Program-made: the position numbers and the translations under genes
Part shown: piece after piece, positions 5,491 to 31,838 of the stretch
How positions within the stretch are numbered: the first letter of the stretch is position 1
How the letters are laid out: every line of letters starts with the position of its first letter
Source of the DNA: Bacteriovoracaceae bacterium
GTDB taxonomy: Bacteria > Bdellovibrionota > Bacteriovoracia > Bacteriovoracales > Bacteriovoracaceae
NCBI GenBank assembly: GCA_018649885.1
Contig: JABIHA010000062.1
Location: forward strand, 62,001 to 94,198
Direction: 5' to 3'
DNA length: 32,198 nt
The notes under the pieces: model-generated
Told to the model about the DNA's origin: nothing
Database searches by the model: none
The model's input: the letters and a program-made list of their open reading frames with translations, nothing else

Positions 5491-5593
5491 TCAAGATTTT
5501 ATATTTTTTTGTGTATTCATCCCTAAATAGGGTAAAATTCCGCATAGGATTTTAAACTAGGTTGCATTGCAGCTAACAGGTGGTGAAAACTCA

Positions 5594-7855
5594 ATGAATA
5601 AGACGACAAAAATATTACTAGTTTCTCTAATTGTTGTAGGCGTAGCTTTTAGTGGTGCTCTATTTTTTGCATCTCAAAAACTAAAGAACTTGGACCTGGT
5701 TAAATTGGCTAAAGAAAATATTGAAAAAAGCCTACCTGGTGCCAAGGCCAATATTACAAAAATAGATTATTCACTTGGTGCAAGTATTGAGTTTAAAGCT
5801 GAGAATACAAGCTTAACGCTTAAAAGAAATGGAACTCCTCTAATTGATCTTAAAGATATTGTGATCAAAATTCCACTTTGGGCCATTTTAACAGGTGGAG
5901 GGAATTTACAGGTAGATATAGATAATCCCAAAATTTCATTTGTCCAATATTCTAAAACAAAAAATAATTGGCTTGAAGCAACAGGTGGATCCAAAAAGAG
6001 AACACCCCAATCTGTAGAGGCAAAATCTAAATCAATGCAAATTCCAAGATTTTTGGCAAAATCAACTGTCAATATTAGTTTCAGAAATATTTCAGTGAAT
6101 TATCGATTGGCTGATAAGTCTAAGGGCGAGCTCAAGGTAGCGAAATTTTTAATTAAAAATCTAAATTTAAAAAAAGAAACGGCTTTTGAAATTGTTTCAA
6201 GAATTGAGAGCAAGATGGCATCGGGAGAGAAACTTTCCCTAGATGCAATGCTTATTGGTCAGGCTAATTTGCACCAAGTTGTAGAAGGAGGAGATTTAAA
6301 ATCAAAAATTATGATCACTTTAAATAAGCTTTCTCTTCCTGGTCTCAAGCATCAAATTGGTGAAGTTAAGTTAGATTTAAATGTTGAAGCAAATCAAAAG
6401 GGTGATGGAGTAGTCGTGTTGGCGGCTAGTTCACCTAAGTTTTTTAAACTTGATGCTAAAGTCGCTGCGAATGCTGGTAATTATGAAGTAACAAATATCC
6501 AGTTCAATACTTCAATGGCAGAGGCCATGAGGTTGACTGGTTTTTCTATGCCAGAGCTTAAGGTTGGAGAGACCAAGCTTTATTTGGAAGGAAATTTAAA
6601 GGCCACTGCAAAAAAAGAGATTATCCCAGATTTAAACTTTAAGACACAACCAGCATTTGTATACAAGGCACCTGAGAAAATAGATGTAAAAGTATTGATG
6701 AATGGCTCTCTCGTAAGAAATCAATTTAATGTAAAAGTTTCGAACTCACTTCTCGGTGGAACTATTAATTTGAAAGTGAGAAATTCAATTAATTTATCAA
6801 AACCTCAAATGAATCCTAAAAAGATGCCAACAACTTATGTCGATATTGTGATGGCGGGATTAAATGTAAAAAAGAGTTTTATTAGAAAGATTATGTATCC
6901 AGAAGGAAAAAAAGTTTCAAGTTTAGTTCATGAAGCGAGAAGATTTCCCTCTTCACAGAAAAAAATCAAACCGATGTATATTCCTTCAAGTAAAATTAGC
7001 TTTAAGGCAGAGGCAGTAAAAATAGGAAGTGCAGACTTTTCAGCAAATGGATTAGTAATTGCGAAAGGAACAAAAATAGGAAGTGATAACTTTAGATTCC
7101 ACTTTGGTAAAGGTGATGGGAAGTTGATATTTAATACGGCCTTAAATCCCAACGGTTTTAAAAAGACCAATTTAAAATTCACGCTAAATAAATTAGATAT
7201 GTCTACACTCTCAGCATTTCTTCCAGCGAGCATAGATGGTGTAGAGGGGATATTTTCAGGACTTGTAAAAGGTTGGGTTAATACTGGTACCAAACCCACA
7301 GATCTAAACTACAAGTTAAATGTCAATGTTAAGGCCACCAATGGAAAGATAAAGGGAATAAATCTTACTCAAAAAATTAAGTCATTGGTTTCCAATATCC
7401 CAATGCTAAAAAAGAAGCTTGAAAAAAAGAATTATAAAGTCAGTGATGAATTTGAAAGATTCATTGTGAGTGGTGACTTTAAAAGTAATCTTTATCAATT
7501 GAAAACATTTCATTTTATTGGAATTAGAAATACTTCGGAATTTAAAGGGAATGGAAAAATCATTCCAGCTCCTCATAAGGGAAATGGAGAAGTATATATG
7601 ACCTATAAGGATCTTTCTGGAGCTATCGCGAAAGAGCTCAAGAAAAATATTGGAAGAGAAGACCTACCAATGAGACTCGTGGGCAATGGATTTAATTTAA
7701 AACCTGACTATGGATACACAATGAAAAAAATTGCCAAGTCAGCAGTAAAATCCCAAGCCACTCAAAAAGTTAAGAAAAAGGCTAAAGATAGTATTAAAAA
7801 AGTCATTGATAAAAATAAAGGTCAATTGAAAAAAATGTTTAAGGGGTTATTCTAA
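5594..7855 (+). CDS. AsmA-family / repeating beta-groove envelope protein
   Basis: Single N-terminal TM anchor, IKIPLWAILTG...IDNPKI segment resembling the AsmA N-terminus, beta-rich body, C-terminal G-x-IKGINL and LPMRLVG. ATG 5594 after AGGTGG is preferred over TTG 5567. Confidence 0.65.
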   Translation: MNKTTKILLVSLIVVGVAFSGALFFASQKLKNLDLVKLAKENIEKSLPGAKANITKIDYSLGASIEFKAENTSLTLKRNGTPLIDLKDIVIKIPLWAILTGGGNLQVDIDNPKISFVQYSKTKNNWLEATGGSKKRTPQSVEAKSKSMQIPRFLAKSTVNISFRNISVNYRLADKSKGELKVAKFLIKNLNLKKETAFEIVSRIESKMASGEKLSLDAMLIGQANLHQVVEGGDLKSKIMITLNKLSLPGLKHQIGEVKLDLNVEANQKGDGVVVLAASSPKFFKLDAKVAANAGNYEVTNIQFNTSMAEAMRLTGFSMPELKVGETKLYLEGNLKATAKKEIIPDLNFKTQPAFVYKAPEKIDVKVLMNGSLVRNQFNVKVSNSLLGGTINLKVRNSINLSKPQMNPKKMPTTYVDIVMAGLNVKKSFIRKIMYPEGKKVSSLVHEARRFPSSQKKIKPMYIPSSKISFKAEAVKIGSADFSANGLVIAKGTKIGSDNFRFHFGKGDGKLIFNTALNPNGFKKTNLKFTLNKLDMSTLSAFLPASIDGVEGIFSGLVKGWVNTGTKPTDLNYKLNVNVKATNGKIKGINLTQKIKSLVSNIPMLKKKLEKKNYKVSDEFERFIVSGDFKSNLYQLKTFHFIGIRNTSEFKGNGKIIPAPHKGNGEVYMTYKDLSGAIAKELKKNIGREDLPMRLVGNGFNLKPDYGYTMKKIAKSAVKSQATQKVKKKAKDSIKKVIDKNKGQLKKMFKGLF

Positions 7856-14158: not shown

Positions 14159-15457
14159 ATGGAAGGAATTGACTTTTCCAAAGAAGATATCAAAGACTTC
14201 AAGAACTGGTTGAATCTAAACTGGGAGGGAGTTACTTGGTATGGAAAATTTGAAGGAGAGTTCAATACTTTTTGGGATGCAACTTTTGCTGCTGATATCA
14301 AGTTAAATGAAATAGTTCGAAGAATTGATTATATAAAATCTCTTATAAAATCGGGGCCACTGACAGCTTGGTTTGATTGGTTGAAGCACAAATGTGTTTG
14401 CTACACCTTTATTTTTAAATCTATTTCGATTTTAGATTTATCTAGGTTTTCGGGAATCGATGAAGATGAAATTGGGCTTCTTTTAAGAGATGCTTTTGTC
14501 GATATTTTGCCTCAACACGAAGATTATCTTAACGAGAAATTTCATATTGGGACAATAATATCAGAAAATATTTATCTCAATATGGATGAAATTAAAGAGG
14601 ATCTAAATTTAGGGGACTATTTTAGAGGAAGTTCATCTGATGAAATAATGGTTTCCCTCGAGGTAACTCTCTATGAAGAGTGGAATAAAATTATTCGTCA
14701 TATAGAAAATGAATTCAGAGAAGATTCTCCCGATTTAAAGAAATATAAAAGAAAGCTCAATGCCAGAAAACAGTTTCGAGTTGTTCAAGACTTTGTCATT
14801 TTGTCGATTATTGGAGTCCTACTAATTTCAGGTGTAAAATTCATCAATAAATATTATGAAAAACACCTTTCAGATAAAATTAGTATTTTTGAACCCGATT
14901 TTTTATGGCTTGATAAAACTTTAACCTTCAAAGAAAGGACAGAGTTGGCATCTGAATCCACCGAAGATATTAAAAAACTTGAAGATATCGAAAATGCGGA
15001 AAGTTTAGGATTTGGGGATGCACCTATAGAAGAAGAACGTTACGAGACTGAATCAGAAGTTTCGGTAACTTCATGGGATGAACTACCAAGAGATTTAGAG
15101 GCTTCTGGTTTTGAGCAATCAGAATACGAGGAAGTAAAAAAAGGCGGCATTAGAGATTCTAGCTATGGAAACAGAAAAGTTTACAGAGTCATGGTTAAGT
15201 CAATTGATCCAGATGCTGCTACGGTTAAGTTGAAAAACTTACTTGAAGAATATCATGTAGGGCAAGTAGACAATGTTAAGCCAGGTACAAATGTTCCCGG
15301 CGGAGTTTATTACAATTTATATGTGCCTATTGAAAATATGCGAGAATTTTTAGCTGAAGTAGAATATGTAGATGATTCCATGGTGTTTGAGAGTCGAACC
15401 AGATGGAGGAACCCTCCAGGGAAAAACCGTGTATTTATTTGGCTAAAGAAAATCTAA
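14159..15457 (+). CDS. Hypothetical bitopic membrane protein
   Basis: 432-aa ORF starting 1 nt after the thiolase stop, with one central TM (FVILSIIGVLLISGV) and an acidic C-terminal half. Confidence 0.75.
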   Translation: MEGIDFSKEDIKDFKNWLNLNWEGVTWYGKFEGEFNTFWDATFAADIKLNEIVRRIDYIKSLIKSGPLTAWFDWLKHKCVCYTFIFKSISILDLSRFSGIDEDEIGLLLRDAFVDILPQHEDYLNEKFHIGTIISENIYLNMDEIKEDLNLGDYFRGSSSDEIMVSLEVTLYEEWNKIIRHIENEFREDSPDLKKYKRKLNARKQFRVVQDFVILSIIGVLLISGVKFINKYYEKHLSDKISIFEPDFLWLDKTLTFKERTELASESTEDIKKLEDIENAESLGFGDAPIEEERYETESEVSVTSWDELPRDLEASGFEQSEYEEVKKGGIRDSSYGNRKVYRVMVKSIDPDAATVKLKNLLEEYHVGQVDNVKPGTNVPGGVYYNLYVPIENMREFLAEVEYVDDSMVFESRTRWRNPPGKNRVFIWLKKI

Positions 15458-15983: not shown

Positions 15984-17795
15984 CTACAAACAATCATCCG
16001 CACCAGTAGCACTTGTCCCAGACGACTTAGCCCCAAGGATAATTAATTCAAGGGCACTGGTATTAAAACATAAATTATCTTTTTCATCATCAGAGTTAAA
16101 AACTTCAGATTTCCCTAAATCACCAAGTGCATCATTATCTGTTTTACCATATTGATCATCGCCAGTTCCTTCATCTTTTGTATCCATAAACGCTGAATCT
16201 TCAACTTCTCGTAAAAGACTTTGGTTTGTTCTACTTTCTTTTCCCGTTTTCGGATCCTTAACAGCAATAAAGGAAGTAACCACATTATTAAAATGTATTA
16301 GCTGGGTATATTGCTCTTCTTGATTATCAAAGTTCTCTTTCACCTCTTCTGCAGCCGTACTGCCCTCTATGATGTCAGCATTTATTTCAGTGGTTTCAAT
16401 TGTATTGGAGACCATTTTTGCCTTGGTTCTGGCAAGAATCGACTCTCTTTTGAGTTTGAGTAGATTTTTTAACTCATTGGCCATATTTAATTCGGGATCA
16501 GCTCCTGTAAGTAGTGACTCAATTTTATCATCAGAATATCCTTTCTCTTTTAATTTTTCTTTTAACACTTCTTTTTTTAAATTTTGTGGATCATTGTATT
16601 CACTTTCAGCAATCAAGCTTTCCACTAAGAACTCTTGGCTTCTCTTATTGTAATCTTTCCAGTCTTCCTCTCCGTAGGTAACTTTGTCACAACCTTCTGT
16701 GCCAGGGTTTTTACATTCCTCATTTTCAAAAGGTTTTTTTTGAGAATCAAATTCATCATGAAGACCTGCTTCATTTACTAGTTCATCAGAGGTTATGCTA
16801 GTCAATTCATCGATAGATTTGCCAGAGTTACCATCACCATTGTAAACCTCTACTTTTTCGGAGTTTACAGCAAGGCCTTTGTGACCAAGCTTTTCATCAT
16901 AGATTTTTTTGACATCGGCTAGTTCTTTCATTTTTGTTCGAACAATATCCAGGTAATTTGTCACCTCACATGCTCTTGTTCTTGTATACTTTACACCTGG
17001 GTCTGTTTCCTCCCCTATGCTCGTAAGATTTTCACATTCTCTTTTACTTGAGCCATTTTCTTTTATTTCTTTTGCTTTTTGCTCTTCACAGATTGATGGA
17101 TCACATATTCCACTGATAGAAGTCATGCAACCACCATATTTAGGGTCATCAGGATTAAATTTTTGTAGATCATTTACATTTCTGTCTCTCATACTCTTTC
17201 TTGCACTGGCTTCTTTCGAAATGTGGTACTTAGTTAAAGTAGTGCCATTTAAATCAGCCTCCAGGCAGTATGATGTAATGGCCAAAATAGCATTTTTAGT
17301 AAGCTGAGAATTATAAAGGGTTACAAAATCAGCTTGGCTTACAATTTTCTTTGTACTGTCACTTGCTCCCTTAAAAAGAGTTTCTTCCATCCTCTTGGAC
17401 AGGTAATCCGTCAATTTTTTGGAAGCCTCAGATTTTTCAAATGTAAGAGATGTTTCTTTTTTCTCACCCAAGTAATCTTTAATCTGTTTGATTTGATCTG
17501 CGTTTAAAGGTGTTATATCTTTAAATTTACTGGAGGCTGGATTGCCTTCACCCCTAAACATTGCCTCAATACAGCCATTTATGTCTTTAGGTGTTTTAAA
17601 ATCTTCATTATCGTAGCATGTACCTTTTATGAGTGGATGATCTATAGCATATACATCTTCACTATCAGCAGTATCTTCAGCAGAGACACTGGCCCCAACT
17701 TCACCGATCACCTTATCCGAGTCATTGCCCTCATCTTCTTCAGCAAAAGAAGCAAAGCAAATCATAAGAATCAAAATCGCAGTAATTATTTTCAT
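15984..17795 (-). CDS. Secreted acidic Cys-rich hypothetical protein
   Basis: MKIITAILILMICFASFA is a Sec signal peptide (start at 17795 or 17807); many Cys; D/E-rich. Confidence 0.8.
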   Translation of the reverse strand: MKIITAILILMICFASFAEEDEGNDSDKVIGEVGASVSAEDTADSEDVYAIDHPLIKGTCYDNEDFKTPKDINGCIEAMFRGEGNPASSKFKDITPLNADQIKQIKDYLGEKKETSLTFEKSEASKKLTDYLSKRMEETLFKGASDSTKKIVSQADFVTLYNSQLTKNAILAITSYCLEADLNGTTLTKYHISKEASARKSMRDRNVNDLQKFNPDDPKYGGCMTSISGICDPSICEEQKAKEIKENGSSKRECENLTSIGEETDPGVKYTRTRACEVTNYLDIVRTKMKELADVKKIYDEKLGHKGLAVNSEKVEVYNGDGNSGKSIDELTSITSDELVNEAGLHDEFDSQKKPFENEECKNPGTEGCDKVTYGEEDWKDYNKRSQEFLVESLIAESEYNDPQNLKKEVLKEKLKEKGYSDDKIESLLTGADPELNMANELKNLLKLKRESILARTKAKMVSNTIETTEINADIIEGSTAAEEVKENFDNQEEQYTQLIHFNNVVTSFIAVKDPKTGKESRTNQSLLREVEDSAFMDTKDEGTGDDQYGKTDNDALGDLGKSEVFNSDDEKDNLCFNTSALELIILGAKSSGTSATGADDCL

Positions 17796-17816
17796 AGTCT
17801 TATACATACTAACGCT

Positions 17817-19619: not shown

Positions 19620-20120
19620 ATGAGTGAAAGTAAGAAATCACTAAATAGAAGGGAATTCTTTAGCTTTTTAGCAGTTGGTTGGATTACCTTTACGGCGGCA
19701 ACTGCTGGCCTTTTAGGTTTAGTCTTTAGATTCTTGTATCCAAATGTAAATTTTGAACCAGAAATGGAATTTATTGCAGGTATCCCAGGCGACTATGATA
19801 ATGGCGTTGATGAGAGATGGAAAAATGGTTTTGGCGTTTGGATTATTAAACGTGAAGGAAAGCTAGTTGCTCTTTCTAATATCTGTACCCATCTCGGTTG
19901 TATTCCCAATTGGCTTCCAGGTGAATTAAAATTTAAGTGTCCATGCCACGGTTCTGGTTTCTACCCTTCAGGTATTAACTTCGAAGGCCCAGCTCCAAGA
20001 CCTCTTGAGAGATTTAAAATCACAACTCTTCCCGATGGAAGATTGAAAATCGATAAAACTAAAAAATATAGATATGAGAAAGGACAGTGGAATAACCCTG
20101 ATTCCTATATTGAGGTTTAA
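19620..20120 (+). CDS. Rieske 2Fe-2S subunit of a Rieske/cytochrome b complex (QcrA/PetC-like)
   Basis: Tat-type NRREFF plus TM, CTHLGC, CPCHGS, GPAPRPL. Confidence 0.95.
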
Positions 20121-20125
20121 TTAAA

Positions 20126-20908
20126 ATGTCTGATAAAAGTATTGTAGATCAAGTTAGAGAAACACAAGTTTGGAAATCAATTTTTCGTCATGGTCCACCA
20201 AACAATGCTCGTAATAGAGCAGCCATAGTTGCTGGAAACGTATTCCTTCACCTGCATCCCATTAAGTTAAAAAAATCTGGGGTTCAGCTTGGCTACACAT
20301 GGTGTATGGGCGGACTAACATTTTTTATCTTTTTGTCACTTACAGTTACCGGTGTTCTTTTAATGTTTTATTACAGACCCACGGCTGAATATGCCTTTAA
20401 CGATATTGTAGCCCTTAGAGAGCATGTCCCTCTAGGTATTATGCGAGAAATTCACAGGTGGGGTGCCCACGCCATGGTTATTACTGTCTGGCTTCACATG
20501 TTTAGGGTCTTCATGACTGGATCATATAAACCACCTAGAGAATTTAATTGGGGTGTTGGTGTAATCCTCTTAGTTTTAACATTACTTCTTTCATTTACTG
20601 GCTATCTTCTTCCTTGGGATCAGCTAGCGATTTGGGCCATTACAGTTGGATCCAATATGGCAAAGGCCACTCCATTTTTAGGTCATGGTGGTCCTGGAGC
20701 AACACTAGCTCAGATCGGGGATTTTATTCTCGTCTCTGATAAAAACGACGTGCGTTTTCAACTTTTAGGCGGTCGTTTTGTTGGTGAGCCAGCACTACTC
20801 AGGTTTTATATTCTTCACTGTGTTTTTATTCCACTTGTTGTGGGAGTGCTTATAGCGATTCACTTTTGGAGAGTTAGAAAAGATGGTGGTATTTCAGCAC
20901 CTCTTTAG
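20126..20908 (+). CDS. Cytochrome b6-type N-terminal subunit (QcrB/PetB-like)
   Basis: WCMGG (heme ci Cys60), HRWGAH...[25 protein letters not shown]...IH, and a b6-like C-terminus GISAPL. Confidence 0.95.
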
Positions 20909-20943
20909 GTTTAGGCAGAGATTAGGGATAATCAGGAAATAAT

Positions 20944-22026
20944 ATGGAAGCTTTGAAAGAATTTGTTAACATTTTATCGGGTCCACAATACTCATTTACT
21001 TTGACCTTGATTATGTTCTATTTGTTAATGAAATATTACAGAATTATTGGAACAAAGAAATTTGCGTGGGGATTTGTTATTCTTATGACCCCTGTCTATC
21101 TTTGGTTTATGAGTGATGATGTTTTTAGAACTATTATTGCCACACCTGATAATATTCCAATTTCAATACTCCTTTTCTCAGTCTTTTTCTTCACTTGGCT
21201 TACCGTTCACAAAGCGGCGATCAACGATGAAAGAATTGAAGCGGGTGAGTGCCCTATAGAGGGATTACCGGAAAATAGAGAAAAGGTCTGGAGTTGGCCA
21301 AATTTAGTTTACAACGAATTATTTGTTATTATTGCGGGAACAATTTTTTTAATTGTTTGGGCAATAATTTTCAAGGCCCCACTTGAGGAGCCTGCCAACC
21401 CAACATGGGCACCGAATCCGGCTAAAGCTCCTTGGTACTTCCTTGGTTTACAAGAAATGCTTGTTTATTTCGATCCTTGGATGGCCGGCGTTGTTCTTCC
21501 TGTCTTTATCATTATTGGTCTTGTGGCCATCCCTTATATTGATACAAATCCAAAAGGAAATGGATATTACACATTTTCTGAAAGAAAGATGGCGATTTCC
21601 TGCTTTATGTTTGGATGGCTAGTTCTTTGGATCTTTTTGATAATTATTGGCACCTTCTTAAGAGGACCCAACTGGACCTTCTATGGACCTTTCGAATACT
21701 GGGATTTCCACAAAGTTGTTGCCGAGGCAAATATTAATTTGTCAGAAATTATTTGGATCAAGATGCTCGGAACCACAATGCCTTCAAATCTTATTGTGAG
21801 AGAGATTTTTGGAATATTTGTAATACTCGCTTACTTTGGAATCAGCGGAGCTATGATTACCAAAAAGTGGGGACAAGATATATTAGAGAAGACTGGGAAG
21901 ATTAGATATTATTTCTTCTTATTCTTAGTTCTGTTCATGGCAACACTTCCAATTAAAATGTATTTGAGATGGTTATTTACTCTGAAATACATTGTGGCCC
22001 TGCCAGAGTGGGAACTAAATCTTTAA
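20944..22026 (+). CDS. Extended subunit IV (cytochrome b C-terminal domain; QcrC/PetD-like)
   Basis: WPNL...ELF, APLEEPANP..PNPAKAPWYFL (PEWY-equivalent loop), AIPYID; extra TM helices at both ends. Confidence 0.85.
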   Translation: MEALKEFVNILSGPQYSFTLTLIMFYLLMKYYRIIGTKKFAWGFVILMTPVYLWFMSDDVFRTIIATPDNIPISILLFSVFFFTWLTVHKAAINDERIEAGECPIEGLPENREKVWSWPNLVYNELFVIIAGTIFLIVWAIIFKAPLEEPANPTWAPNPAKAPWYFLGLQEMLVYFDPWMAGVVLPVFIIIGLVAIPYIDTNPKGNGYYTFSERKMAISCFMFGWLVLWIFLIIIGTFLRGPNWTFYGPFEYWDFHKVVAEANINLSEIIWIKMLGTTMPSNLIVREIFGIFVILAYFGISGAMITKKWGQDILEKTGKIRYYFFLFLVLFMATLPIKMYLRWLFTLKYIVALPEWELNL

Positions 22027-22060
22027 TATAAAAGGAATTAAAAAAATAAGGATATATTGA

Positions 22061-24916
22061 ATGAAACTTGAACCAGGCATGGCATTTGATACGAAAGTAC
22101 AAAATAAAGTCTTTGCTTTTCTATCTATTCTACTTCTGCTTTCAACTGTTTGGGTTATCTTAGATGATTATATTAGACCGTGGAAAGCTGTTCAAATTAA
22201 GGCCCTAGACATTAAAAAAGAAGTTCTAGGTGAAAAACTAAAAGCTGTTAAAGCAAGTGTAAAACCTGAAGAAGTTGCAGCTCTAAAAAAGGCCATTGAA
22301 GCTGGTCAGAAAATTAGAGATTCACGGCAAGCGGAAGTTGACGCTCTTAAGAAAGAATTGGGTGAAACTCAGGCAAAAATTTACGCTCAAAAAATTATCA
22401 ATGGTGCTGATGGTTCCAGCTCATCAGCTATGACTTTTCAGTGGGAAATGAAAAAAGAGCACGGAAAAGACGCTGCCGCTAAAAAACTTAAGGGCAAACT
22501 CGATGCATTGAATATTAAATGGGGCAAAGGCAAGGATTATTTTAAGCAACTTACAACTGACGAAAAAAATGTTCTCAATGCCATCGCAGCAAAAAGTAAA
22601 GAGCTGAAGCTTGCTCAGAAAGACTACAAAGAAAAAGCTGGTAAATTAGATATGACCCAAGAGGCTTATGATAGTGCTAGCTTCTTTTCAGATCCTATTA
22701 ACTTTTTAAGAAATGCTCCATTTATCGATTACCTTGATCCTACAATTAAAATTCAACAAGTAGTGGCCGAGAATATTACTGAAGATCGTTATTTCAAACA
22801 AACAGAGAAAGTCGACAGGTGTATGACCTGCCACACTTTTATCGATAAACCAGGTTATGAGAAAAAAGATAATCCCTATAAAACTCACCCTAATCTTAAC
22901 TTAATGGTGGGAGCTGATTCACCACACCCTATGAAAAAAACAGGGTGTACAACATGTCATGGTGGAGAAGGACAAAGGGTTTTTGATTTTAACGCAGCTG
23001 AGCACAGACCTGAAAATGAAAAGCAAAAACAAGAGTGGATTGCAAAATATCACTACCATGAAGGCCATAAAATCGCTCAACCAATCAGAAAGAAATCTCA
23101 GACAGAAGCAGGCTGTGTTAAGTGTCACCAAGGTAAAGAATTTATTCCACAAGCAGATAGATTGAATAAAGGCCGCCAATTAGTACAGACTTACGGCTGT
23201 TACGGTTGTCATAAAATTAAAGGCTGGGAACATCTTAGAAAGCCAGGACCAAGTCTTTATAAAATTTCAAGTAAGGTGTCTAAAGAGTGGACTAAAAACT
23301 GGGTATGGTTTCCAAGACACTTTAATCCAAAAACAAAAATGCCTCACTACTTTAATCAAAGTAATAATTCTAAGCCAGAATTTTTAAAGAAAAACGTAGC
23401 GGAAGTGAATTCTATTGTTGAGTACCTCTTTAAGAACTCTAAGTCCTTTTCTCCTTTTACCAGATACAATGGCGGAAATGCTGATAAAGGGAAGGCCTTA
23501 ATTCAAAACGTAGGCTGTATTAGTTGTCACCAAGTTGAAGGCATTGGAAATGATTTTAATAAAGTGGGATCAAAAAAAGGTCCATACCTAACGGGCTTGG
23601 GATCAAAGGTTTCAGGGGACTGGTTAGTTTCATGGTTAATGAGACCTTCTCACTATCAAGAGGATACTGTGATGCCATCTTTTCGATTATCGAAAAGAGA
23701 AGCAAGTGACATGACCTCTTACCTTCTAACTCTCAAAAATAAAAAATTCTCTGAGATGAAATTTTCAGATCTAGATAGATCAGTTCGTGATGAGCTTCTT
23801 TTAGAGTACTTCAGCTCTTTCGATACAATCGCAGTGGCCAAGACAAAACTAGCAGGCCTCGATGACCACCAAAGAACACTAGAGCTCGGAAAGAGATCCA
23901 TTGGTAAATTTGGCTGCTACTCATGTCACAATATTGATGGCTTTGAAGGAAGATCACCTATTGGAGTTGATCTAACGAATGAGGGATCTAAACCAGTTAC
24001 TCAACTGGCCTTTGGACACGAGCACATTGAGCATAAAAGAGATGTTTGGTTTAAAAATCACATGCTCAACCCCAGAAGATGGGATAGAGGAAATAACAAA
24101 GGTTTTAAAGATCTCTTGAGGATGCCTAACTTTTTTATGTCAGAAGAGGATGCTGATTTACTTACAGTCTTCTTACTTGGACAAAATAGTGAAAAAGTTC
24201 CCATGGCAGGTCAGAAGAATTTAAATGAATATGAGGTTGCTGAGGAAAAAGGCCACCGTGTGATGAGCAAATATAATTGCTACGGTTGTCACAATATTGA
24301 TGGCATGGGCGGAGATATTTTAAAAGCAACTGCTTACGCTGATGATCCAAATGAGGCTCCACCGATTTTGGCAGGGCAAGGTCATAGAGTGCATACTGAT
24401 TGGTTCTATAATTTCCTAGGTAATGTTCACACTATTAGACCTTGGCTAAAAGTTAGAATGCCGACTTTTAATCTCTCAAATGAAGAAAAAAACACAATTG
24501 TCGATGGTTTTAGAGCAAGAAAGAAGCTTCCTGTTTTTGAAGAAAAACCTGAAAAAGTAGTTTGGGAGCCTGGTGAGAGAGCCGCTGCCAAAAAATTAAT
24601 TACTGAGTATGCTTGTGATAGTTGCCACACACTTGGGTTTAATAAAGATGAGCCCATGGCACCTAATCTTCATCATGCCAAGAATCGTTTGAGAGCTTCA
24701 TGGATTGAGAAATGGTTAAAAGACCCTCAATCAGTGATGCCTGGAACTACAATGCCTAACTTCTTCGCTGATGGAGAGGCCCAAGAGCCATCTATCCTTG
24801 GCGGAAGCGTAGATAGACAAGTAACAGCATTAAGAAAATATATACAAGAAATTGGTGAGAAAGAGTTTCCCGAAGCTGGCTGGTATGAAGCCACGGGTTT
24901 CAAAAAGCCAGAATAG
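22061..24916 (+). CDS. Membrane-anchored octaheme cytochrome c
   Basis: N-terminal TM, long coiled coil, eight CxxCH motifs: CMTCH, CTTCH, CVKCH, CYGCH, CISCH, CYSCH, CYGCH, CDSCH. Confidence 0.92.
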   Translation: MKLEPGMAFDTKVQNKVFAFLSILLLLSTVWVILDDYIRPWKAVQIKALDIKKEVLGEKLKAVKASVKPEEVAALKKAIEAGQKIRDSRQAEVDALKKELGETQAKIYAQKIINGADGSSSSAMTFQWEMKKEHGKDAAAKKLKGKLDALNIKWGKGKDYFKQLTTDEKNVLNAIAAKSKELKLAQKDYKEKAGKLDMTQEAYDSASFFSDPINFLRNAPFIDYLDPTIKIQQVVAENITEDRYFKQTEKVDRCMTCHTFIDKPGYEKKDNPYKTHPNLNLMVGADSPHPMKKTGCTTCHGGEGQRVFDFNAAEHRPENEKQKQEWIAKYHYHEGHKIAQPIRKKSQTEAGCVKCHQGKEFIPQADRLNKGRQLVQTYGCYGCHKIKGWEHLRKPGPSLYKISSKVSKEWTKNWVWFPRHFNPKTKMPHYFNQSNNSKPEFLKKNVAEVNSIVEYLFKNSKSFSPFTRYNGGNADKGKALIQNVGCISCHQVEGIGNDFNKVGSKKGPYLTGLGSKVSGDWLVSWLMRPSHYQEDTVMPSFRLSKREASDMTSYLLTLKNKKFSEMKFSDLDRSVRDELLLEYFSSFDTIAVAKTKLAGLDDHQRTLELGKRSIGKFGCYSCHNIDGFEGRSPIGVDLTNEGSKPVTQLAFGHEHIEHKRDVWFKNHMLNPRRWDRGNNKGFKDLLRMPNFFMSEEDADLLTVFLLGQNSEKVPMAGQKNLNEYEVAEEKGHRVMSKYNCYGCHNIDGMGGDILKATAYADDPNEAPPILAGQGHRVHTDWFYNFLGNVHTIRPWLKVRMPTFNLSNEEKNTIVDGFRARKKLPVFEEKPEKVVWEPGERAAAKKLITEYACDSCHTLGFNKDEPMAPNLHHAKNRLRASWIEKWLKDPQSVMPGTTMPNFFADGEAQEPSILGGSVDRQVTALRKYIQEIGEKEFPEAGWYEATGFKKPE

Positions 24917-24940
24917 AAATGACCATTAAGGAGTGAATAT

Positions 24941-25567
24941 ATGAGCGCCCACGCCCATGCAGATGATCCAGATTATGCACTAGTAGAACCAAATGATGAA
25001 TTATTTGGAAGTGCCACCCCAGGTAAGATTGCCATGTGGATCTTTCTCATTACGGATGCCATGTCCTTTTCTGGATTTCTCATTGCCTACGCGATTTTGC
25101 GTGCCACTAAAAGTTGGCCAAGCCCAGCTGAGCACCTTGGAATTGGTCTTTCAGGTTTTGCCACTTTCATTCTTATTTGTAGCTCCGTCTCTATGGTTTT
25201 AAGTATTGATGGTTGCAAGAGAAAGGACAGATCCTCCATGCTCAATTGGCTGGGTCTTACAATATTGGGTGGAGTGATCTTTCTCGGTATCCAGGCTTAC
25301 GAATACGCCCACCTTGTTCACGGTGGACTAACGCTTGTTAACTTCTCTGAGGGCACAAATTTATTTGCCTCAACCTTTTATATGATTACTGGCTTCCATG
25401 GTCTTCACGTTCTAACAGGGGTTATCTATTTAACAACTATTTTCGTTCAGGCCTATAATGGAAAGTACGATAATGGTGAATACAACAACCTTGAAATCGT
25501 TGGACTGTTTTGGCACTTTGTCGATTTAGTCTGGATCTTGGTCTTTACCTTTATCTATCTGTTGTAG
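24941..25567 (+). CDS. Heme-copper oxidase subunit III-like protein (short five-TM form)
   Basis: GKIAMWIFLITD, LICSS, FLGIQAYEY, TGFHGLHV, GLFWHFVDLVW; RBS AAGGAG. Confidence 0.92.
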   Translation: MSAHAHADDPDYALVEPNDELFGSATPGKIAMWIFLITDAMSFSGFLIAYAILRATKSWPSPAEHLGIGLSGFATFILICSSVSMVLSIDGCKRKDRSSMLNWLGLTILGGVIFLGIQAYEYAHLVHGGLTLVNFSEGTNLFASTFYMITGFHGLHVLTGVIYLTTIFVQAYNGKYDNGEYNNLEIVGLFWHFVDLVWILVFTFIYLL

Positions 25568-25780
25568 ATGAAAATCCTTAGCCTAATTCTTGGTGCATTT
25601 TGGATCAATTTTGCCATGGCCTGCCCGTACTGTGCAGGCTCTAACCCAGATGCCAGAGACAAGTACACCGTTTTTATCCTATTGATCTTTATCGTGGCCT
25701 GCTATGTACCGCTTGCTATGCTTTTCAACCTCATGAGAAAAAACCGCGCTCTCAATAATATAGAAAAAAATGACAATTAA
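25568..25780 (+). CDS. Small membrane protein with signal peptide and CPYC motif
   Basis: Abuts the upstream stop and overlaps the downstream start; signal peptide ending AMA, then CPYC, then one TM. Confidence 0.7.
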   Translation: MKILSLILGAFWINFAMACPYCAGSNPDARDKYTVFILLIFIVACYVPLAMLFNLMRKNRALNNIEKNDN

Positions 25781-26192
25781 CGACTTACCCTGCCTTAATG
25801 CTGGCCTCAATTCACTGTCATTCATTCTTCTTTTGGCAGGCTATTGTGCCATAAGAAAAAATCAAAAATCACTCCATATAAAGTTGATGCTCTCGGCAAC
25901 CGCAGTGTCTGCAGCTTTTCTAACAAGCTATCTAATCTATCACGCACATGCCGGCTCAAAAGCTTTCCCAGACCTTGGGTGGATCAAAACTATTTATCTC
26001 ATCATTCTAGTGCCACACATAATCCTCGCGGCCGTCATGGTCCCCATGATACTAGTAACCTTCTACCACGCCTTCAAACAAAACCATGATAGTCATAAAA
26101 AATGGGCAAAACTAACTTTGCCCATCTGGTTATTCGTCTCCATAACCGGAGTCATCATCTATCTAATGCTCTACGTTTTTTTTACTCAGTAA
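25770..26192 (+). CDS. DUF420 (YozB/CtaM-like) membrane protein
   Basis: LPCLNAGLN, H..LM..A...SAAFL.SYL.YH, HIILA, HKKWAK.T.PIWL.VS.TGV..Y; this family typically accompanies oxidase operons. Confidence 0.9.
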   Translation: MTINDLPCLNAGLNSLSFILLLAGYCAIRKNQKSLHIKLMLSATAVSAAFLTSYLIYHAHAGSKAFPDLGWIKTIYLIILVPHIILAAVMVPMILVTFYHAFKQNHDSHKKWAKLTLPIWLFVSITGVIIYLMLYVFFTQ

Positions 26193-27348
26193 CAGAACCT
26201 CCATCGCTATCAATGATTGTATCTATAAGAATTAAAACCTTTTTTGCGGCTTCAAGAGCTTCTTCTTCAGCAAGAGTTAAGGCCTTATCTGCGGCTTCAA
26301 GAGTATTTTTTGCATCGTTGACTTCCTCATCCATTCGAGAGGCAACATCTTTGAGAAGTGCTTCAGTGTACATAAAAAGGAGATCAAAATATTTACTATC
26401 TAATTCATTAATTTTGTCTAAGTATTTAGTTATTGCAATACCCGATATGAGACAATTTTCTTTGTAGGTTTGCAACATTCCAGTTATTTTAGCGTGACGA
26501 CTGAACTCCTCAAGCTCCTCTTCTGAAAAATTAGCTTCACGAAATTTTTCATAGTAGAGATCGTAATACTGATCTAGATTGTCACAATACAATCCAAATT
26601 TTTTCGATATATCTTCAAAGTTTAAGGTGTGTTTATCAAGGATTCCACCAAAGTAGTCTTTATTCTTTACTTCAAATGCCTTACTGACCATTTCAGCGGT
26701 CAGTTCTTCTAATCCTGCTAGCGCCAATAATCCAACGCCTTTAACTTCTTCATTATTTATTCTTTGTTCAATTTTTTCATAGAAGCTTTGAAAGCTATCA
26801 GAGCTCAGAACTTCATCCTTGTCTGCCACCTTTTCCGTAGCCGTCTGTGCTTCAACATCAGTTTCGCCAAGCAATATTTGCTCTTTCTTTTTTCCATATT
26901 CTTCAACTCTACCTTTAAGTTCCCTACATCCAGTACTAAATCTACTAAGTTTGGTATCAATGGGTATGTGAACTTCTAGGCCACTAACAGCACTATCAAC
27001 ATCATCACTACTGCCAATAGAAAAATGAGTTTTTTTAAAATTATCAGTGTAGTGGTTATATATCCTGACGAATTGTGAACAGTTTAAACTATAGGATTCA
27101 GAAAAAGCTGTGTCTTTAAGTTCAAGATCAGGAAGAAGGACTTCAAGGTTAGACTCAGGTGCAAATTCGTCGAGGTGGGCCACATATTGATCAATACTTG
27201 CGATAGACTCCTCAATGGTAAGCCCATCTGTTATGCGAGTAAGCTCAGCAAGGTAATCAGCAGCATTTTCTGTCAAAAATATAGGATCTTCTGCTGAAAT
27301 GGCACTTCCCATTCCCATTATTAAAACTAACGCAAAGATTGCTCTCAT
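26182..27348 (-). CDS. Secreted acidic helical hypothetical protein
   Basis: ATG 27348 (MRAIFALVLIMGMGSAISA signal peptide) follows GGGGA and is preferred over the 27447 start. Confidence 0.75.
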   Translation of the reverse strand: MRAIFALVLIMGMGSAISAEDPIFLTENAADYLAELTRITDGLTIEESIASIDQYVAHLDEFAPESNLEVLLPDLELKDTAFSESYSLNCSQFVRIYNHYTDNFKKTHFSIGSSDDVDSAVSGLEVHIPIDTKLSRFSTGCRELKGRVEEYGKKKEQILLGETDVEAQTATEKVADKDEVLSSDSFQSFYEKIEQRINNEEVKGVGLLALAGLEELTAEMVSKAFEVKNKDYFGGILDKHTLNFEDISKKFGLYCDNLDQYYDLYYEKFREANFSEEELEEFSRHAKITGMLQTYKENCLISGIAITKYLDKINELDSKYFDLLFMYTEALLKDVASRMDEEVNDAKNTLEAADKALTLAEEEALEAAKKVLILIDTIIDSDGGSVTE

Positions 27349-27399
27349 TACTGGTTCCCCTGGTCCAAGTCGTCTCTGATATAAAGTGGAAATATTAAG

Positions 27400-27416
27400 T
27401 GCAAATTGAATGCCGG
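27400..27416 (-). promoter_or_regulatory. Possible sigma54 -24/-12 promoter
   Basis: Minus strand CCGGCATTCAATTTGCA fits GG-N10-GC with TTGCA, about 50 nt upstream of ATG 27348. Confidence 0.4.
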
Positions 27417-27561
27417 CATAAGTCCCTAATAACTGGTTTAAAGCCACTTATCGTAATGATTAAAGTTTAGGCACCTGCCTTGGAAATATTACAAAGTTTC
27501 AAATATTTAGTGATGATTTTTCTGATTATAGGTAGAAATAAGTAACGGTAATGGAGCATAA

Positions 27562-27975
27562 ATGACTTTAAAAAAATGGCCCATATTTTTTGTACTACTC
27601 GCACTATATTCTAGTAGTGCATTTGCAGAGGGTCTTGGATACAAAACTTACCGCAGTCTTTTTGCCACCAATAATTGTGACATTCAAACCTGCACTCCTT
27701 CATATAGTCCTTTTAAAATGGATGAATGCATAGGGTTTATTGATTCAGAACTATTTGGCACAACTGAGCCTCAAGTTTGTTACGAGAAGGCATTGGAGCA
27801 TGCAAGAGCTCTTGGAGCCTATGGGCTAAACAGCTATGTGAAGTGGAAACTTGGGAACAGGTTTTGGGGTAACTCGGCTTATGGTGGAAAAGTTAGTAGT
27901 GGCTCCCCAGACGAGTACAGCGCGGGAGATCAAATAGTGAATGAAATAATTTTTAAAGCAGTAAAAGTAGAATAA
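27562..27975 (+). CDS. Small secreted hypothetical protein with four Cys
   Basis: Signal peptide ending SSAFA; RBS GGAG. Confidence 0.75.
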   Translation: MTLKKWPIFFVLLALYSSSAFAEGLGYKTYRSLFATNNCDIQTCTPSYSPFKMDECIGFIDSELFGTTEPQVCYEKALEHARALGAYGLNSYVKWKLGNRFWGNSAYGGKVSSGSPDEYSAGDQIVNEIIFKAVKVE

Positions 27976-28022
27976 TAATAGAGAGTGAGAGCTCTATTTA
28001 ATAATTTGTTTGGAGAGAGAAA

Positions 28023-30239
28023 ATGCAACACATCCTTAGATTATCTTTGATAATTTCCGTTTTATTCATTTCGACATTGGCCCATTCGGCAAAAAGAGTC
28101 ACCATTATGACTTACAATGTTCAAAACCTATTCGACGCCATTAATGATCCGGCCAAAAATGATGAAAGTTATCTTCCACTATCAGTTAAAAACCAAATTG
28201 AAGGACACGTTGATAATTGCATCAAAATACTGGGAAGTGAGCTCCCCGAAAATCCTGCTGAACTTCAAAAAGAAATCAAAAGAAGAAAAGGACATCCCTG
28301 GGTAAGAGAGTGCCTTGCGATGGATTGGAATGATGAAGTAATTGAGAAAAAGCTAAAGCGTCTAGCTGCTGTTATTCGATCTGTGAACGATGGAGCTGGA
28401 CCGGATATCTTATTTTTGCAAGAAATTGAAAACAAAGAAGTGGTTGAAAGGCTTCGTCTGAATCATCTAAGTGATTTGGGATATCAAGAAACTCTTCATC
28501 AAGAAGGCGATGATGCCAGAGGAATTGATATCGCTATTTTAACTAAGCTTAAAATCAGGGGGGGTGTAGAGCTTGAAAAAACTGACTTCAGCGAATCAAA
28601 CCCTGAAAAGATAGCCGATACTAGAGAAATAACTGGGGCACAAGTGCAACTTCCAAACGGAGATACAGTTAATCTCTTTGGCGTTCACATGCCTGGGCAG
28701 CATCTAGAAAATCCAGAAATGCGAGTAGAGCAAATAGAGCATTTGGCCAAATTGCAAAGAACAGGACGCTACAATAGGAATCCAAGTATTGCCGCTGGGG
28801 ACTTTAATATTTCAGCGCCCGAAGATAAAAAGAGCCAATTGTATGAGATGATCGGTAAGAATTGGGGCGTCTCACACCTTATGGGCTGTGACGACTGCGA
28901 AGGGACTTATTACTGGAGAGGCGAAAATCAGTGGTCCATGTTTGATGCAATCCTAGTGACCCAAAATCTTAAAAAATATGTCGACACAGATTCAATTAAA
29001 ATAATTAAGGGCCTTCCCAACCAAACCTGGTCTTCAAATGGAGGACCTAGAAAATTTAATCCATATAATTTCTCTGGAACCTCTGATCATTTTCCACTTG
29101 TAATGGACCTCGTTTTCCCTGAAGCGGATGACCTTGAAGCTCAAATCAATAGAAGAAAATGGATTGGAAGAAGGGATAAAGTTAAAGGGAAAAAAGTAAA
29201 AGTGGCTTTTTATGATGCAGATAGCACCCTTAGAGTTACTAAAAGTGGCAAATTTAGTAATGACTATGCTGAAGATGTTATACTCCTACCCCTTGTAGCG
29301 CAGGCCTTAAAGAAAGCACAGGATGAGGGTTATGTCATAGCTGTAATTTCAAACCAAGCCTCTGTGCCTGAAAGAAAGACTTATGAAGCTGCCAATGGAG
29401 GAATTGTAACAGTTATAGAACTCCTTAGAGCTCGAGGAGTAAGTGTTGATTACTACGATTTTGCAGAACATAAAGACCATGACAGAAAGCCAAACCCTGG
29501 AATGGGAGAGAGGCTTGGCAGTGAACTAAAGAGAATGTTTAATGGAGCCACAATTGATAAAGAAAACTCTTTTATGGTTGGAGATGCCACCTATAAAAAA
29601 GCAGAGATAGGTGGGTACAGACCTGACCCCAATGACCCATCAAAAAAGATTTTAATTACTAAAAAAGACACCTCATTTTCAAACTCTGACAGATTATTTG
29701 CCGCAAATTTTGGAATTGAATTCAAAATTCCTGCAGACTATTTTGGATGGAGAAAATATGGTGTTCACAAAATTGAACGCAAGTACCAAGCCTTTGATCT
29801 TTACAGGAAATTGATGGAGCCTCATATTCTTGACGATCTCAGTGCTTCTGTTGAACTGGAAGTGGGAGATAGTGGCGGAGATGGTCATGACAAGACTGAT
29901 TCAATAATTATTCGAACTAATTTCAACAAAGTTGCACTTAAGAGTGCTTACTATGTTGGAACTGCAGTAGCTGAATTTGATCTGATTGGAGATTTTGCTG
30001 AAGAATTTGAAGATAATTTGCTTCCCAAAAAACACTATGAGAAGTTAGTTGAGCTTGGCTACGACAAGGATCTTGAATTTGGCGATAGCGATGATGAAGA
30101 AAACCTAGAAATTTCCATAGAGGATTATTTCAATATTTACTTATTCATGATTAAGCTAGGAAATCCAAAATTCTCGTACGAAATTATTTCCGCAGACTCA
30201 TATCTAGATTTAGGTGGATATGGACTCTTCTTCTTTTAA
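28023..30239 (+). CDS. Exported EEP (endonuclease/exonuclease/phosphatase) protein fused to a PNKP-type HAD 3'-phosphatase and an acidic C-terminal domain
   Basis: Signal peptide ending AHSA. EEP motifs TYNVQN, LQEIE, AGDFN, SDHFP. HAD motifs FYDADSTL..TKSG, ISNQ, RKPNPGM, FMVGDA, FSNSDRLFAAN. Confidence 0.85.
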   Translation: MQHILRLSLIISVLFISTLAHSAKRVTIMTYNVQNLFDAINDPAKNDESYLPLSVKNQIEGHVDNCIKILGSELPENPAELQKEIKRRKGHPWVRECLAMDWNDEVIEKKLKRLAAVIRSVNDGAGPDILFLQEIENKEVVERLRLNHLSDLGYQETLHQEGDDARGIDIAILTKLKIRGGVELEKTDFSESNPEKIADTREITGAQVQLPNGDTVNLFGVHMPGQHLENPEMRVEQIEHLAKLQRTGRYNRNPSIAAGDFNISAPEDKKSQLYEMIGKNWGVSHLMGCDDCEGTYYWRGENQWSMFDAILVTQNLKKYVDTDSIKIIKGLPNQTWSSNGGPRKFNPYNFSGTSDHFPLVMDLVFPEADDLEAQINRRKWIGRRDKVKGKKVKVAFYDADSTLRVTKSGKFSNDYAEDVILLPLVAQALKKAQDEGYVIAVISNQASVPERKTYEAANGGIVTVIELLRARGVSVDYYDFAEHKDHDRKPNPGMGERLGSELKRMFNGATIDKENSFMVGDATYKKAEIGGYRPDPNDPSKKILITKKDTSFSNSDRLFAANFGIEFKIPADYFGWRKYGVHKIERKYQAFDLYRKLMEPHILDDLSASVELEVGDSGGDGHDKTDSIIIRTNFNKVALKSAYYVGTAVAEFDLIGDFAEEFEDNLLPKKHYEKLVELGYDKDLEFGDSDDEENLEISIEDYFNIYLFMIKLGNPKFSYEIISADSYLDLGGYGLFFF

Positions 30240-30377: not shown

Positions 30378-31055
30378 ATGAGTTTCTCATCACAGCTATT
30401 TTTCCACCGAATAGATATGAGTATGAAGCTAGTACTCGAGGCATTTAAATTTTATCTATCGCTCATAAACCCCTTTCTTATGAAAAAGGTTTTATTCAAA
30501 TGGAATGGAAAAAAGCCTAGTACGTTGATGAGCTATAAACTATTTCGAGATCTTAAAAAAAGAGATATCAGTCAGTTATCTCTTCTTTCTTTTGAGGCGA
30601 TTAAGAAAATTCAAAGTAAATCTACAAAGTTAGAGAATCAATTGATTGAAAAGAATGGAATTTATGAACACAGTCTTTTAAAGAAGAGCTTTTTAAAATT
30701 TTTCCCTCATGAAGTTGCTAAGATACGCGTAGTAAGTGATCAAGGTGAAGATATTAGCTCTCGCTTCTACCATTGCAGTCAGTACCGTGCTCTCGATTTA
30801 ATGATTTTGCGAAAACAAGTAAGTCGCCTTTACTTTCTAGCTAGAAAAAAAGGACTAAATATCAAAGAGATCGAAATCTCTCATACTCACCCTTCCTTAG
30901 AAGTTCTGATTGTGGATCAATGTGGCTTTAACTTTATTACCAATGGACTTAGCGCAGGGGACCAAAATATTGGTTCAATTATAGCAAGAGATATATCTCA
31001 TCCTCTTAGAGTGAAGGCGATCACACCTCTTGCAAATTACTCTATGGTTTTTTAA
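30378..31055 (+). CDS. Hypothetical protein with a possible JAB/MPN-like HxH...SxxD motif
   Basis: IEISHTHP...LSAGD near the C-terminus; the true start may be 30417 or 30423. Confidence 0.55.
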   Translation: MSFSSQLFFHRIDMSMKLVLEAFKFYLSLINPFLMKKVLFKWNGKKPSTLMSYKLFRDLKKRDISQLSLLSFEAIKKIQSKSTKLENQLIEKNGIYEHSLLKKSFLKFFPHEVAKIRVVSDQGEDISSRFYHCSQYRALDLMILRKQVSRLYFLARKKGLNIKEIEISHTHPSLEVLIVDQCGFNFITNGLSAGDQNIGSIIARDISHPLRVKAITPLANYSMVF

Positions 31056-31062
31056 CTGAGCC

Positions 31063-31617
31063 TTATTTTTGAATAATTATAGAGAGCATCTTGTCGCCCT
31101 TGACCACTTTATCGATGACATCTAATCCCTCAATAACTTGCCCAAAAACCGTATATTTTCCATCGAGTTGAGATACAGTATCGAGGGCTATATAAAATTG
31201 CGAATCAGCACTGTCAGGGTTAGAGCTCCTGGCCATGGCAACTGATCCTTTTATATGCTTTGTTTGGTTAAATTCAGCCTTTAGATTTTTACCACTTCCC
31301 GATGTTCCTGTTCCGGTTGGGTCTCCTCCCTGGATTACAAATCCAGGAACTACGCGGTGAAACGTTAAACCATCATAAAAACCCATATTGGCCAGTTCAA
31401 TTATCCTGGTCACGGTATTGGGTGCCCTTTTTGGGTAGAACTTAAAAATAATATTTCCATGGATTGTTTTAATGATTGCTTGAATGCTTGAAAGCCCTTG
31501 TGAGTCGACCTTCATGTCTTTAGCATCTATAGAAGGAGTCGTTTTTTTGGGGGCTTTTTCTTTTTGACAGGAAACCAATAATCCAAAAATGAGTGTAAAT
31601 ATCAAAATTCGCTGCAT
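31063..31617 (-). CDS. Cyclophilin-type peptidyl-prolyl isomerase, lipoprotein
   Basis: Lipobox LVSC, APNT, FYDGLTFHRVVPGFVIQGGDP, AMAR, SQFYI, LDGKYTVFGQV. Confidence 0.95.
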   Translation of the reverse strand: MQRILIFTLIFGLLVSCQKEKAPKKTTPSIDAKDMKVDSQGLSSIQAIIKTIHGNIIFKFYPKRAPNTVTRIIELANMGFYDGLTFHRVVPGFVIQGGDPTGTGTSGSGKNLKAEFNQTKHIKGSVAMARSSNPDSADSQFYIALDTVSQLDGKYTVFGQVIEGLDVIDKVVKGDKMLSIIIQK

Positions 31618-31762: not shown

Positions 31763-31838
31763 GGGGGTGTAGCTCAGTTGGGAGAGCATCAGATTTGCAT
31801 TCTGAGGGTCGCAGGTTCGATCCCTGTCATCTCCACCA
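31763..31838 (+). tRNA. tRNA-Ala(UGC)
   Basis: 76-nt cloverleaf: acceptor GGGGGTG/CATCTCC with G3:U70, D arm GCTC/GAGC, anticodon stem TCAGA/TCTGA with loop TT-TGC-AT, T loop TTCGATC, encoded CCA. Confidence 0.97.

Follow-up and report, generated by a model that had tools for sequence, protein, structure and literature searches.

PNKP-type 3'-phosphatases are familiar as repair enzymes that work inside the cell. We analysed a gene in which a domain of this type follows a predicted export leader and an EEP domain, neither of which is seen in the eukaryotic PNKP/Tpp1 proteins (PF08645, TIGR01664; PDB 3u7g, 3zvn, 1yj5). The gene lies in a 32,198-nucleotide stretch of a Bacteriovoracaceae genome (GenBank assembly GCA_018649885.1, contig JABIHA010000062.1, forward-strand positions 62,001 to 94,198; hereafter the window) as a single open frame on the plus strand, from the ATG at 28023 to 30239, encoding 738 residues, and we give about an even chance to the reading that its product is an exported nucleic-acid scavenger with two active sites that serve a shared pool of fragments and do not act in series. 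Among described systems, its HAD domain shares the DxDxT phosphatase chemistry of the T4 Pnkp and bacterial Pnkp1 phosphatase domains, and its EEP domain resembles MnuA and the DNase I-like extracellular EEP nucleases in its predicted export, both catalytic His residues, the Asp/Asn/Glu set and a match to PF19580. MnuA is a sugar-nonspecific nuclease that leaves 3'-OH ends (PMC12848938), and the portion of the MnuA literature consulted describes no HAD fusion. The model NF033681 of the ExeM/NucH nucleases, which count among these enzymes, matches the window EEP at only E 0.16, far below its cut-off, and the window EEP belongs to a Cys-pair subfamily. During predation Bdellovibrio reportedly secretes several nucleases with signal peptides, which have been proposed to digest prey DNA in sequence (PMC7925074); Bd0934, Bd3507, Bd1244 and Bd1934 of this predator are in that respect like the window protein, but neither 'phosphatase' nor 'EEP' occurs in the main text that describes them. 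A literature search outside subscription journals found neither an exported bacterial family of PNK3P proteins nor an EEP–PNK3P fusion described, and the three-domain architecture, built from known kinds of domain and one domain of unknown kind, is apparently undescribed.

An earlier sequence-only reading had presented the gene as a two-domain EEP and HAD fusion ending at 29750. Both domains were found as described, but the frame continues about 490 bases further, to 30239, and encodes a third domain (residues 598–738) that had been missed. Twenty sequencing runs listed as containing the gene's words were all marine or seawater metagenomes, 7 of them holding at least half of the sampled words; no RNA run was among those listed, which has no bearing on expression. 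The junctions were checked in four runs, none flagged as a possible source of the assembly. The EEP/HAD junction was bridged in three of the four (X4, X6 and X8; X3 breaks there) and the HAD/third-domain junction in all four; no differing letters, gaps or joints appeared at either bridged junction, and no single piece covers the entire gene. With each junction bridged by public marine reads that show no differences, the assembly artefact named as a possible refutation in the sequence-only reading is ruled out, and the three-domain fusion is real in the sampled marine population. The GC content at third codon positions of the three parts (0.35, 0.29 and 0.30) is near 0.33 ± 0.04 and thus gives no sign of foreign composition; the source genome is 5.45 Mb long with 38% GC. 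A database entry (P0002), on record on three contigs, is the same protein called from Met29 and hence without the signal peptide; we favour the ATG at 28023 because a Shine-Dalgarno-like GGAG lies upstream of it (28010..28022, plus strand). A scan for promoters and terminators gave counts at or below chance (4 versus 8.9 and 2 versus 2.2).

The N-terminus (residues 1–22; 28023..28088, plus strand) is a predicted Sec-type signal peptide, in agreement with the sequence-only reading: its basic, hydrophobic and AxS parts were recognised by eye, its hydropathy peak is 3.0, and stand-alone EEP homologues have similar N-termini. The EEP (Exo_endo_phos_3) domain occupies residues 23–365 (28089..29117, plus strand) and matches PF19580 at E 3.9e-24 and PF03372 at E 3.1e-10. 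The catalytic set is complete, as had been claimed, with N32, E134, H222, D260 and N262 of the D-x-N motif, D308, D355 and H356 invariant in 16 of 16 aligned homologues; the Cys pair C66/C97 is likewise invariant. The domain is likely to have nuclease activity. Of 40 relatives, 30 encode EEP homologues, none of them fused, since their frames span only 262–422 residues; the Cys-pair subfamily is common in Bdellovibrionota, and the source genome has two further EEP paralogues. A profile search of the PDB placed TDP2 first, followed by an uncharacterised EEP and sphingomyelinase. A linker of about 11 residues (29118..29150, plus strand) with no trace of a signal peptide of the HAD's own leads directly into the paired-Arg strand of the HAD family, as in P0054, P0069, P0083 and P0017, other proteins of that family.

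The HAD domain (residues 377–597; 29151..29813, plus strand) has the catalytic residues D398, D400, T402, S443-N444, K489 and D521 and a PNKP-type tail (F552, D556, R557, F559 and P570). It matches PF08645 (PNK3P) over its full length (1–161 of 161) with 96.1 bits against a gathering score of 22 (E 2.4e-27), a threshold that is a weak test of PNKP type because GmhB-type genes pass it too. Discrimination came from TIGR01664, which scored 72.6 bits compared with 18.4 for the GmhB model TIGR00213 and 23.4 for HisB-N, and from the best PDB sequence matches, which were mouse PNKP; the earlier view that the domain resembles PNKP more than GmhB/HisB is thereby upheld. Relatives score 44–78 bits against TIGR01664. 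D171, D173, T217, N218, K260 and D289 of human PNKP are matched by D398, D400, S443, N444, K489 and D521, and when the human DNA-contact set (K183, V184, F185, K226, K303, K304 and F306) was compared, K410, K452 and F552 of the HAD aligned with it, with F411 at or beside the F185 position, depending on an alignment gap. Compared with the HAD-IIIA enzymes GmhB and HisB-N, the domain has DAD-T-L-R in place of DRDG as motif I, a long insert at motif IV and an export leader, and it lacks the GmhB zinc motif (CxH...CxCRKP), which is present in 18 of 22 GmhB-type rows and in none of 113 bacterial-family rows. Its fold is closest to PNKP; GmhB is the next structural match, with a lower root-mean-square deviation (1.9) over fewer residues (145). 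The bacterial domain also departs from PNKP/Tpp1 in two family-specific features, an Arg that follows motif I and a YxDFAE strand, and the family is without the conserved Phe185 column or the positive charge of PNKP. No Pfam kinase or P-loop family, AAA_33 and Zeta included, and no FHA domain matched the fusion protein, and the kinase-phosphatase model TIGR01663 gave 75.1 bits against a cut-off of 502.8, consistent with the earlier claim that a kinase P-loop is lacking. As to PNK3P domains elsewhere, stand-alone phage HADs (L163–L169) share the DAD-T-L-R motif, phage PNK3P clusters head the matches in the ESM Atlas (0.93), and a PNK3P of algal origin has been described in corals (PMC4878875).

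HAD trees were built by quick searches on subsets of 85, 58 and 50 rows, mostly taken from 148 cut domains. The best tree with phage HADs placed the bacterial and eukaryote-type rows on one side and the GmhB and phage rows on the other, with support of 99/94 under LG+G4 and an SH-aLRT of 90 in a quick search under a mixture model. Twelve eukaryote-type rows formed their own group (100/99) with the query outside it, and eukaryote names were found on 4 of the 8 eukaryote-type rows looked up; the GmhB rows likewise grouped together (100/100). Approximately unbiased (AU) tests, however, rejected none of three alternatives (bacterial with phage, p 0.23; bacterial with GmhB, p 0.19; query with GmhB, p 0.18), so that 'sister to eukaryotic PNKP' describes the best tree only, and rooting with KdsC left the groups unresolved. 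The phylogeny proposed in the sequence-only reading thus keeps GmhB apart in its best tree and leaves the query-plus-GmhB grouping unrejected, and for the likeness to PNKP the motifs and the fold are a better basis than the tree. The HADs of P0050, P0054 and P0118 form one clade (95/86), which the window HAD adjoins with support of only 22/72. Stand-alone phage HADs with the DAD-T-L-R motif and a short motif IV (L163, L164 and L167–L171) fall between GmhB and PNK3P in the tree, three of them with a zinc-type Cys/His motif.

The PNKP-like HAD belongs to a bacterial family of its own, apparently exported, whose members usually stand alone. A representative search found 705 proteins at E ≤ 0.001, of which the best 150 were listed; once 14 eukaryote-type rows and a repeat-like one had been removed, 135 rows remained including the query, the set to which the partner counts below refer. 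By a crude rule, a hydrophobic leader was present in 85 of the 106 family rows with at least 35 residues before motif I, compared with 1 of the 14 eukaryote-type rows, and many members have lipoprotein-like cysteines. In source databases the only names given to members are 'HAD-IIIA family hydrolase' and 'DNA 3'-phosphatase'. Searches of 401 genomes of the phylum found the family in 19, including 3 of 100 in the source organism's own family; a twentieth candidate (G379, locus L039) was excluded because it is a fusion of GmhB type. When 185,579 species genomes were scanned for the exact motif, 53 loci emerged, all from metagenome-derived genomes, labelled as Bdellovibrionota groups, Polyangiaceae, Riflebacteria, Elusimicrobiota, unplaced Deltaproteobacteria and others. 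Across 56 loci no conserved neighbourhood was seen beyond synteny within lineages and antisense frames, and a search of annotated phages with the HAD gave one weak match only. A word-index search with the HAD region among proteins of 405–1292 residues returned only the window protein, which is no evidence of uniqueness because it missed fusions found by the representative search.

EEP domains are partners in four of the 135 rows: the window gene, P0050, P0054 and P0118. The pairing of EEP with PNK3P, which also occurs at L104 and L109, is thus not confined to the window gene; the other five cases involve an EEP subfamily different from that of the window gene. The exact three-domain form was seen in the window gene alone among the best 150 of the 705 representatives. 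No similarity was detectable between the EEPs of the window gene and P0054, and the EEPs of P0050 and P0054 are distantly related (E 3e-8) and stand in opposite domain order. Among 56 distinct genome loci, a fused EEP was found in three and a separate upstream EEP gene in two, directly upstream of the HAD at L066 and two genes away, with a third type of EEP, at L071; none of 30 GmhB-type or 14 KdsC control loci had an EEP neighbour, a comparison in which the controls have shorter flanks and the regular expression undercounts EEP genes. At L071 (2460–4690) three genes follow one another on the same strand, encoding an exported EEP, a transglycosylase-like protein (PF06737, E 3e-4) and the exported HAD. 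Among named partners PhoD is the most frequent (5 of 135: P0069, P0083, P0094, P0102 and P0127), and an exported PhoD-like phosphatase also precedes the same HAD at L035, L037, L110 and L111; the fusion recurs in several genomes, some of them with Bdellovibrionota labels. A ComEC-type MBL domain, an HD domain, a Zeta/AAA-type kinase and a tandem HAD occur once each, besides many unknown partners. In P0017, an export-like leader, a Zeta/AAA_33-type P-loop kinase and PNK3P make up the PNKP kinase-phosphatase set in the T4 order. Four of the 135 share an unnamed C-terminal domain, which we take to be acyltransferase-like. Cyclophilin is fused to the same HAD in Riflebacteria-group loci (L078, L079, L081, L082 and L196). 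A separate cyclophilin with a lipoprotein-like leader is encoded in the window at 31063–31617 on the minus strand, about 800 bases downstream of the fusion gene and opposite to it; its presence beside a family with cyclophilin fusions is possibly coincidence. Overall, the link between HAD and EEP is recurrent, with about three associations, but it is modest, and the family has unrelated fusion partners as well.

The third domain (residues 598–738; 29814..30239, plus strand) is acidic, with 32 D+E and 10 K+R, and has GDxSxDGH and GGYGLF motifs. It matches phrog_20092 at E 2.4e-9 and has 451 relatives, usually stand-alone phage genes of about 135 residues; it represents a separate, phage-associated family, mostly of small genes. 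Relatives also lie at L041–L059, with the domain in tandem at L051 and L058, and export-like versions make up 22 of 120 listed relatives (P0153–P0272). The invariant D, D, G and H residues of these motifs suggest a metal or catalytic site. The search run against the PDB gave no fold match, and inspection by eye of 12 viral loci showed nothing recurrent around the genes except an HD-like neighbour in two. An in-frame internal ATG at 29814 (Met598) is preceded by the Shine-Dalgarno-like word AGGA (29800..29816, plus strand); in the genome's long open reading frames, 561 of the 16175 Met codons inside a frame (3.5%) have such a word before them, as do 680 of the 2043 that come first (33%). The GD motif lies 18 from Met598, and in 91 short stand-alone members the distance is 8–19.5 (5th–95th percentile). 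The ATG may possibly be a relic of, or a still-used, start of this domain, which is most likely a formerly separate downstream gene, recently appended and unneeded for the mechanism.

In the scavenger reading, the protein would be exported and periplasmic or secreted, and the EEP would cut DNA or RNA in the DNase I/MnuA manner to give 5'-phosphate and 3'-OH ends. The HAD, through an Asp398 phospho-enzyme, would strip 3'-phosphates from oligonucleotides or nucleoside 3'-monophosphates, acting in parallel with or before the EEP; these 3'-phosphates would be supplied by other nucleases, such as staphylococcal-type nucleases or prey RNases, or by oxidative breaks. Phosphate and 3'-OH ends would thereby be freed for further digestion and uptake. 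PhoD and proteins of the SNase and 5'-nucleotidase families are also encoded in the source genome. Relatives bear Bdellovibrionota and Bacteriovoracaceae labels, so the host most likely belongs to that predatory phylum and is probably a predator of other bacteria, a lifestyle that we infer. Nucleic-acid or phosphate harvesting, as the sequence-only reading had proposed, is the best reading because the same HAD family is repeatedly fused with or close to EEP, PhoD and ComEC-type domains; the two-step order proposed within it, cleavage and then removal of the 3'-phosphate, fared worse. Both DNase I and MnuA, an EEP nuclease, produce ends with 3'-OH and 5'-phosphate, whereas staphylococcal nuclease produces 3'-phosphate (PMC12848938), so the EEP would not make the substrate of the HAD, and that order is therefore unlikely.

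Several results weigh against the scavenger reading. The HAD scores below the TIGR01664 equivalog cut-off of 107.65 bits, and most bacterial members have Ser or Thr in the column of the base-stacking Phe185 of PNKP, with Val in place of the next Trp. Net charge has a median of −3 in the bacterial domains and is 0 in the window HAD, compared with −3 for GmhB and +5 for PNKP; being GmhB-like, it argues against polymeric DNA as the main HAD substrate. No nuclease is among the best solved relatives of the EEP profile, which are TDP2 and sphingomyelinase, and the SNase of the source genome lacks a clear export leader as called. The family also fuses with partners unrelated to nucleic acids, such as cyclophilin, the unnamed domain and many unknowns. 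Separate EEP neighbours (2 of 56, about 0.7 expected from the own-genome rate) are not above chance, 27 further metagenome loci gave one EEP fusion and no EEP neighbour, and the EEP-linked members are not independent, since P0050, P0054 and P0118 are one clade.

The alternative that survives best, though we consider it unlikely, is an exported phosphate scavenger whose HAD would be a phosphomonoesterase of broad range or for small molecules and whose EEP would cleave phosphodiesters in lipids or other esters. The two would release phosphate from dissolved organic phosphorus by diester and then monoester cleavage, a route that has nothing to do with DNA ends. The prevalence of PhoD among named partners, the non-basic HAD family without the Phe185 column, the marine habitat and the sphingomyelinase and nocturnin among solved EEP relatives would all suit such an enzyme, but the HAD keeps the PNKP-specific tail and a fold closest to PNKP, the EEP falls in PF19580 with its full catalytic set, and a ComEC-type nuclease domain and a P-loop kinase are partners too. 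Less probable still is chance concatenation, in which three modules were joined in one lineage and each works alone with no coupled function. All three domains stand alone in relatives, the exact architecture was found only here among the best 150 of 705 representatives, HAD partners are many and unrelated with no conserved neighbourhood in 56 loci, and the third domain has a relic-like start; against this, the EEP–HAD junction is clean and retains nothing of the HAD's own leader, and EEP and HAD are linked more than once, in either domain order and also as neighbouring genes. That the EEP itself leaves 3'-phosphate ends for the HAD to remove is very improbable, for although the two domains share one chain, the catalytic set is that of a standard EEP and the EEP enzymes DNase I and MnuA leave 3'-OH. 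Equally remote is a role of the HAD in dephosphorylating sugars or histidinol among envelope precursors, as GmhB/HisB-type enzymes do, which the unrejected GmhB groupings and the low structural deviation would allow but which the missing zinc motif, the different motif I, the low GmhB score and the two ordinary GmhB-type genes already in the source genome oppose.

A bolder extension of the scavenger reading is doubtful in our estimate. Bdellovibrionota, Myxococcota, Riflebacteria and Elusimicrobiota, as predators and bacteria related to them, would carry an undescribed family of exported true polynucleotide 3'-phosphatases, the closest bacterial relatives of the eukaryotic PNKP phosphatase. 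By healing 3'-phosphate ends beyond the cytoplasm, these would allow nucleic acid from prey or the environment to be fully digested or taken up with usable ends. Repeated coupling to EEP, to ComEC-type nucleases and to the P-loop kinase of P0017 would then mark an extracytoplasmic end-processing pathway, with the window gene as its most complete single-chain form. The three-domain fusion is a single case, of interest chiefly because it points to the HAD family. That family, if truly exported, would be a new setting for PNKP-type 3'-phosphatase chemistry and would supply a missing step in the final digestion of prey DNA and RNA by predators and in the release of phosphate from nucleic acids by marine bacteria; the tree placement, if it holds, would bear on the origin of the eukaryotic PNKP phosphatase. 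Its small stand-alone members are easy to express and assay.

Around the fusion gene, two divergent genes at 27562–27975 (plus strand) and 26182–27447 (minus strand) have export-like leaders and no convincing family match; the former ends 47 bases before the fusion gene and may be co-transcribed with it. Downstream, the open reading frame at 30378–31055 (plus strand) encodes 225 residues without a Pfam or NCBIfam match, and an HTHP...S..D pattern near its C-terminus is reminiscent of JAB/MPN metalloenzymes. Elsewhere in the window, three long frames of 762, 432 and 607 residues (5567–7855, plus strand; 14159–15457, plus strand; 15984–17807, minus strand) have no Pfam match above cut-off, a cluster at 19620–26192 (plus strand) encodes a Rieske protein, a split cytochrome b, a 951-residue multiheme cytochrome c, COX3 and DUF420, and a tRNA-Ala(TGC) gene lies at 31763–31838 (plus strand).
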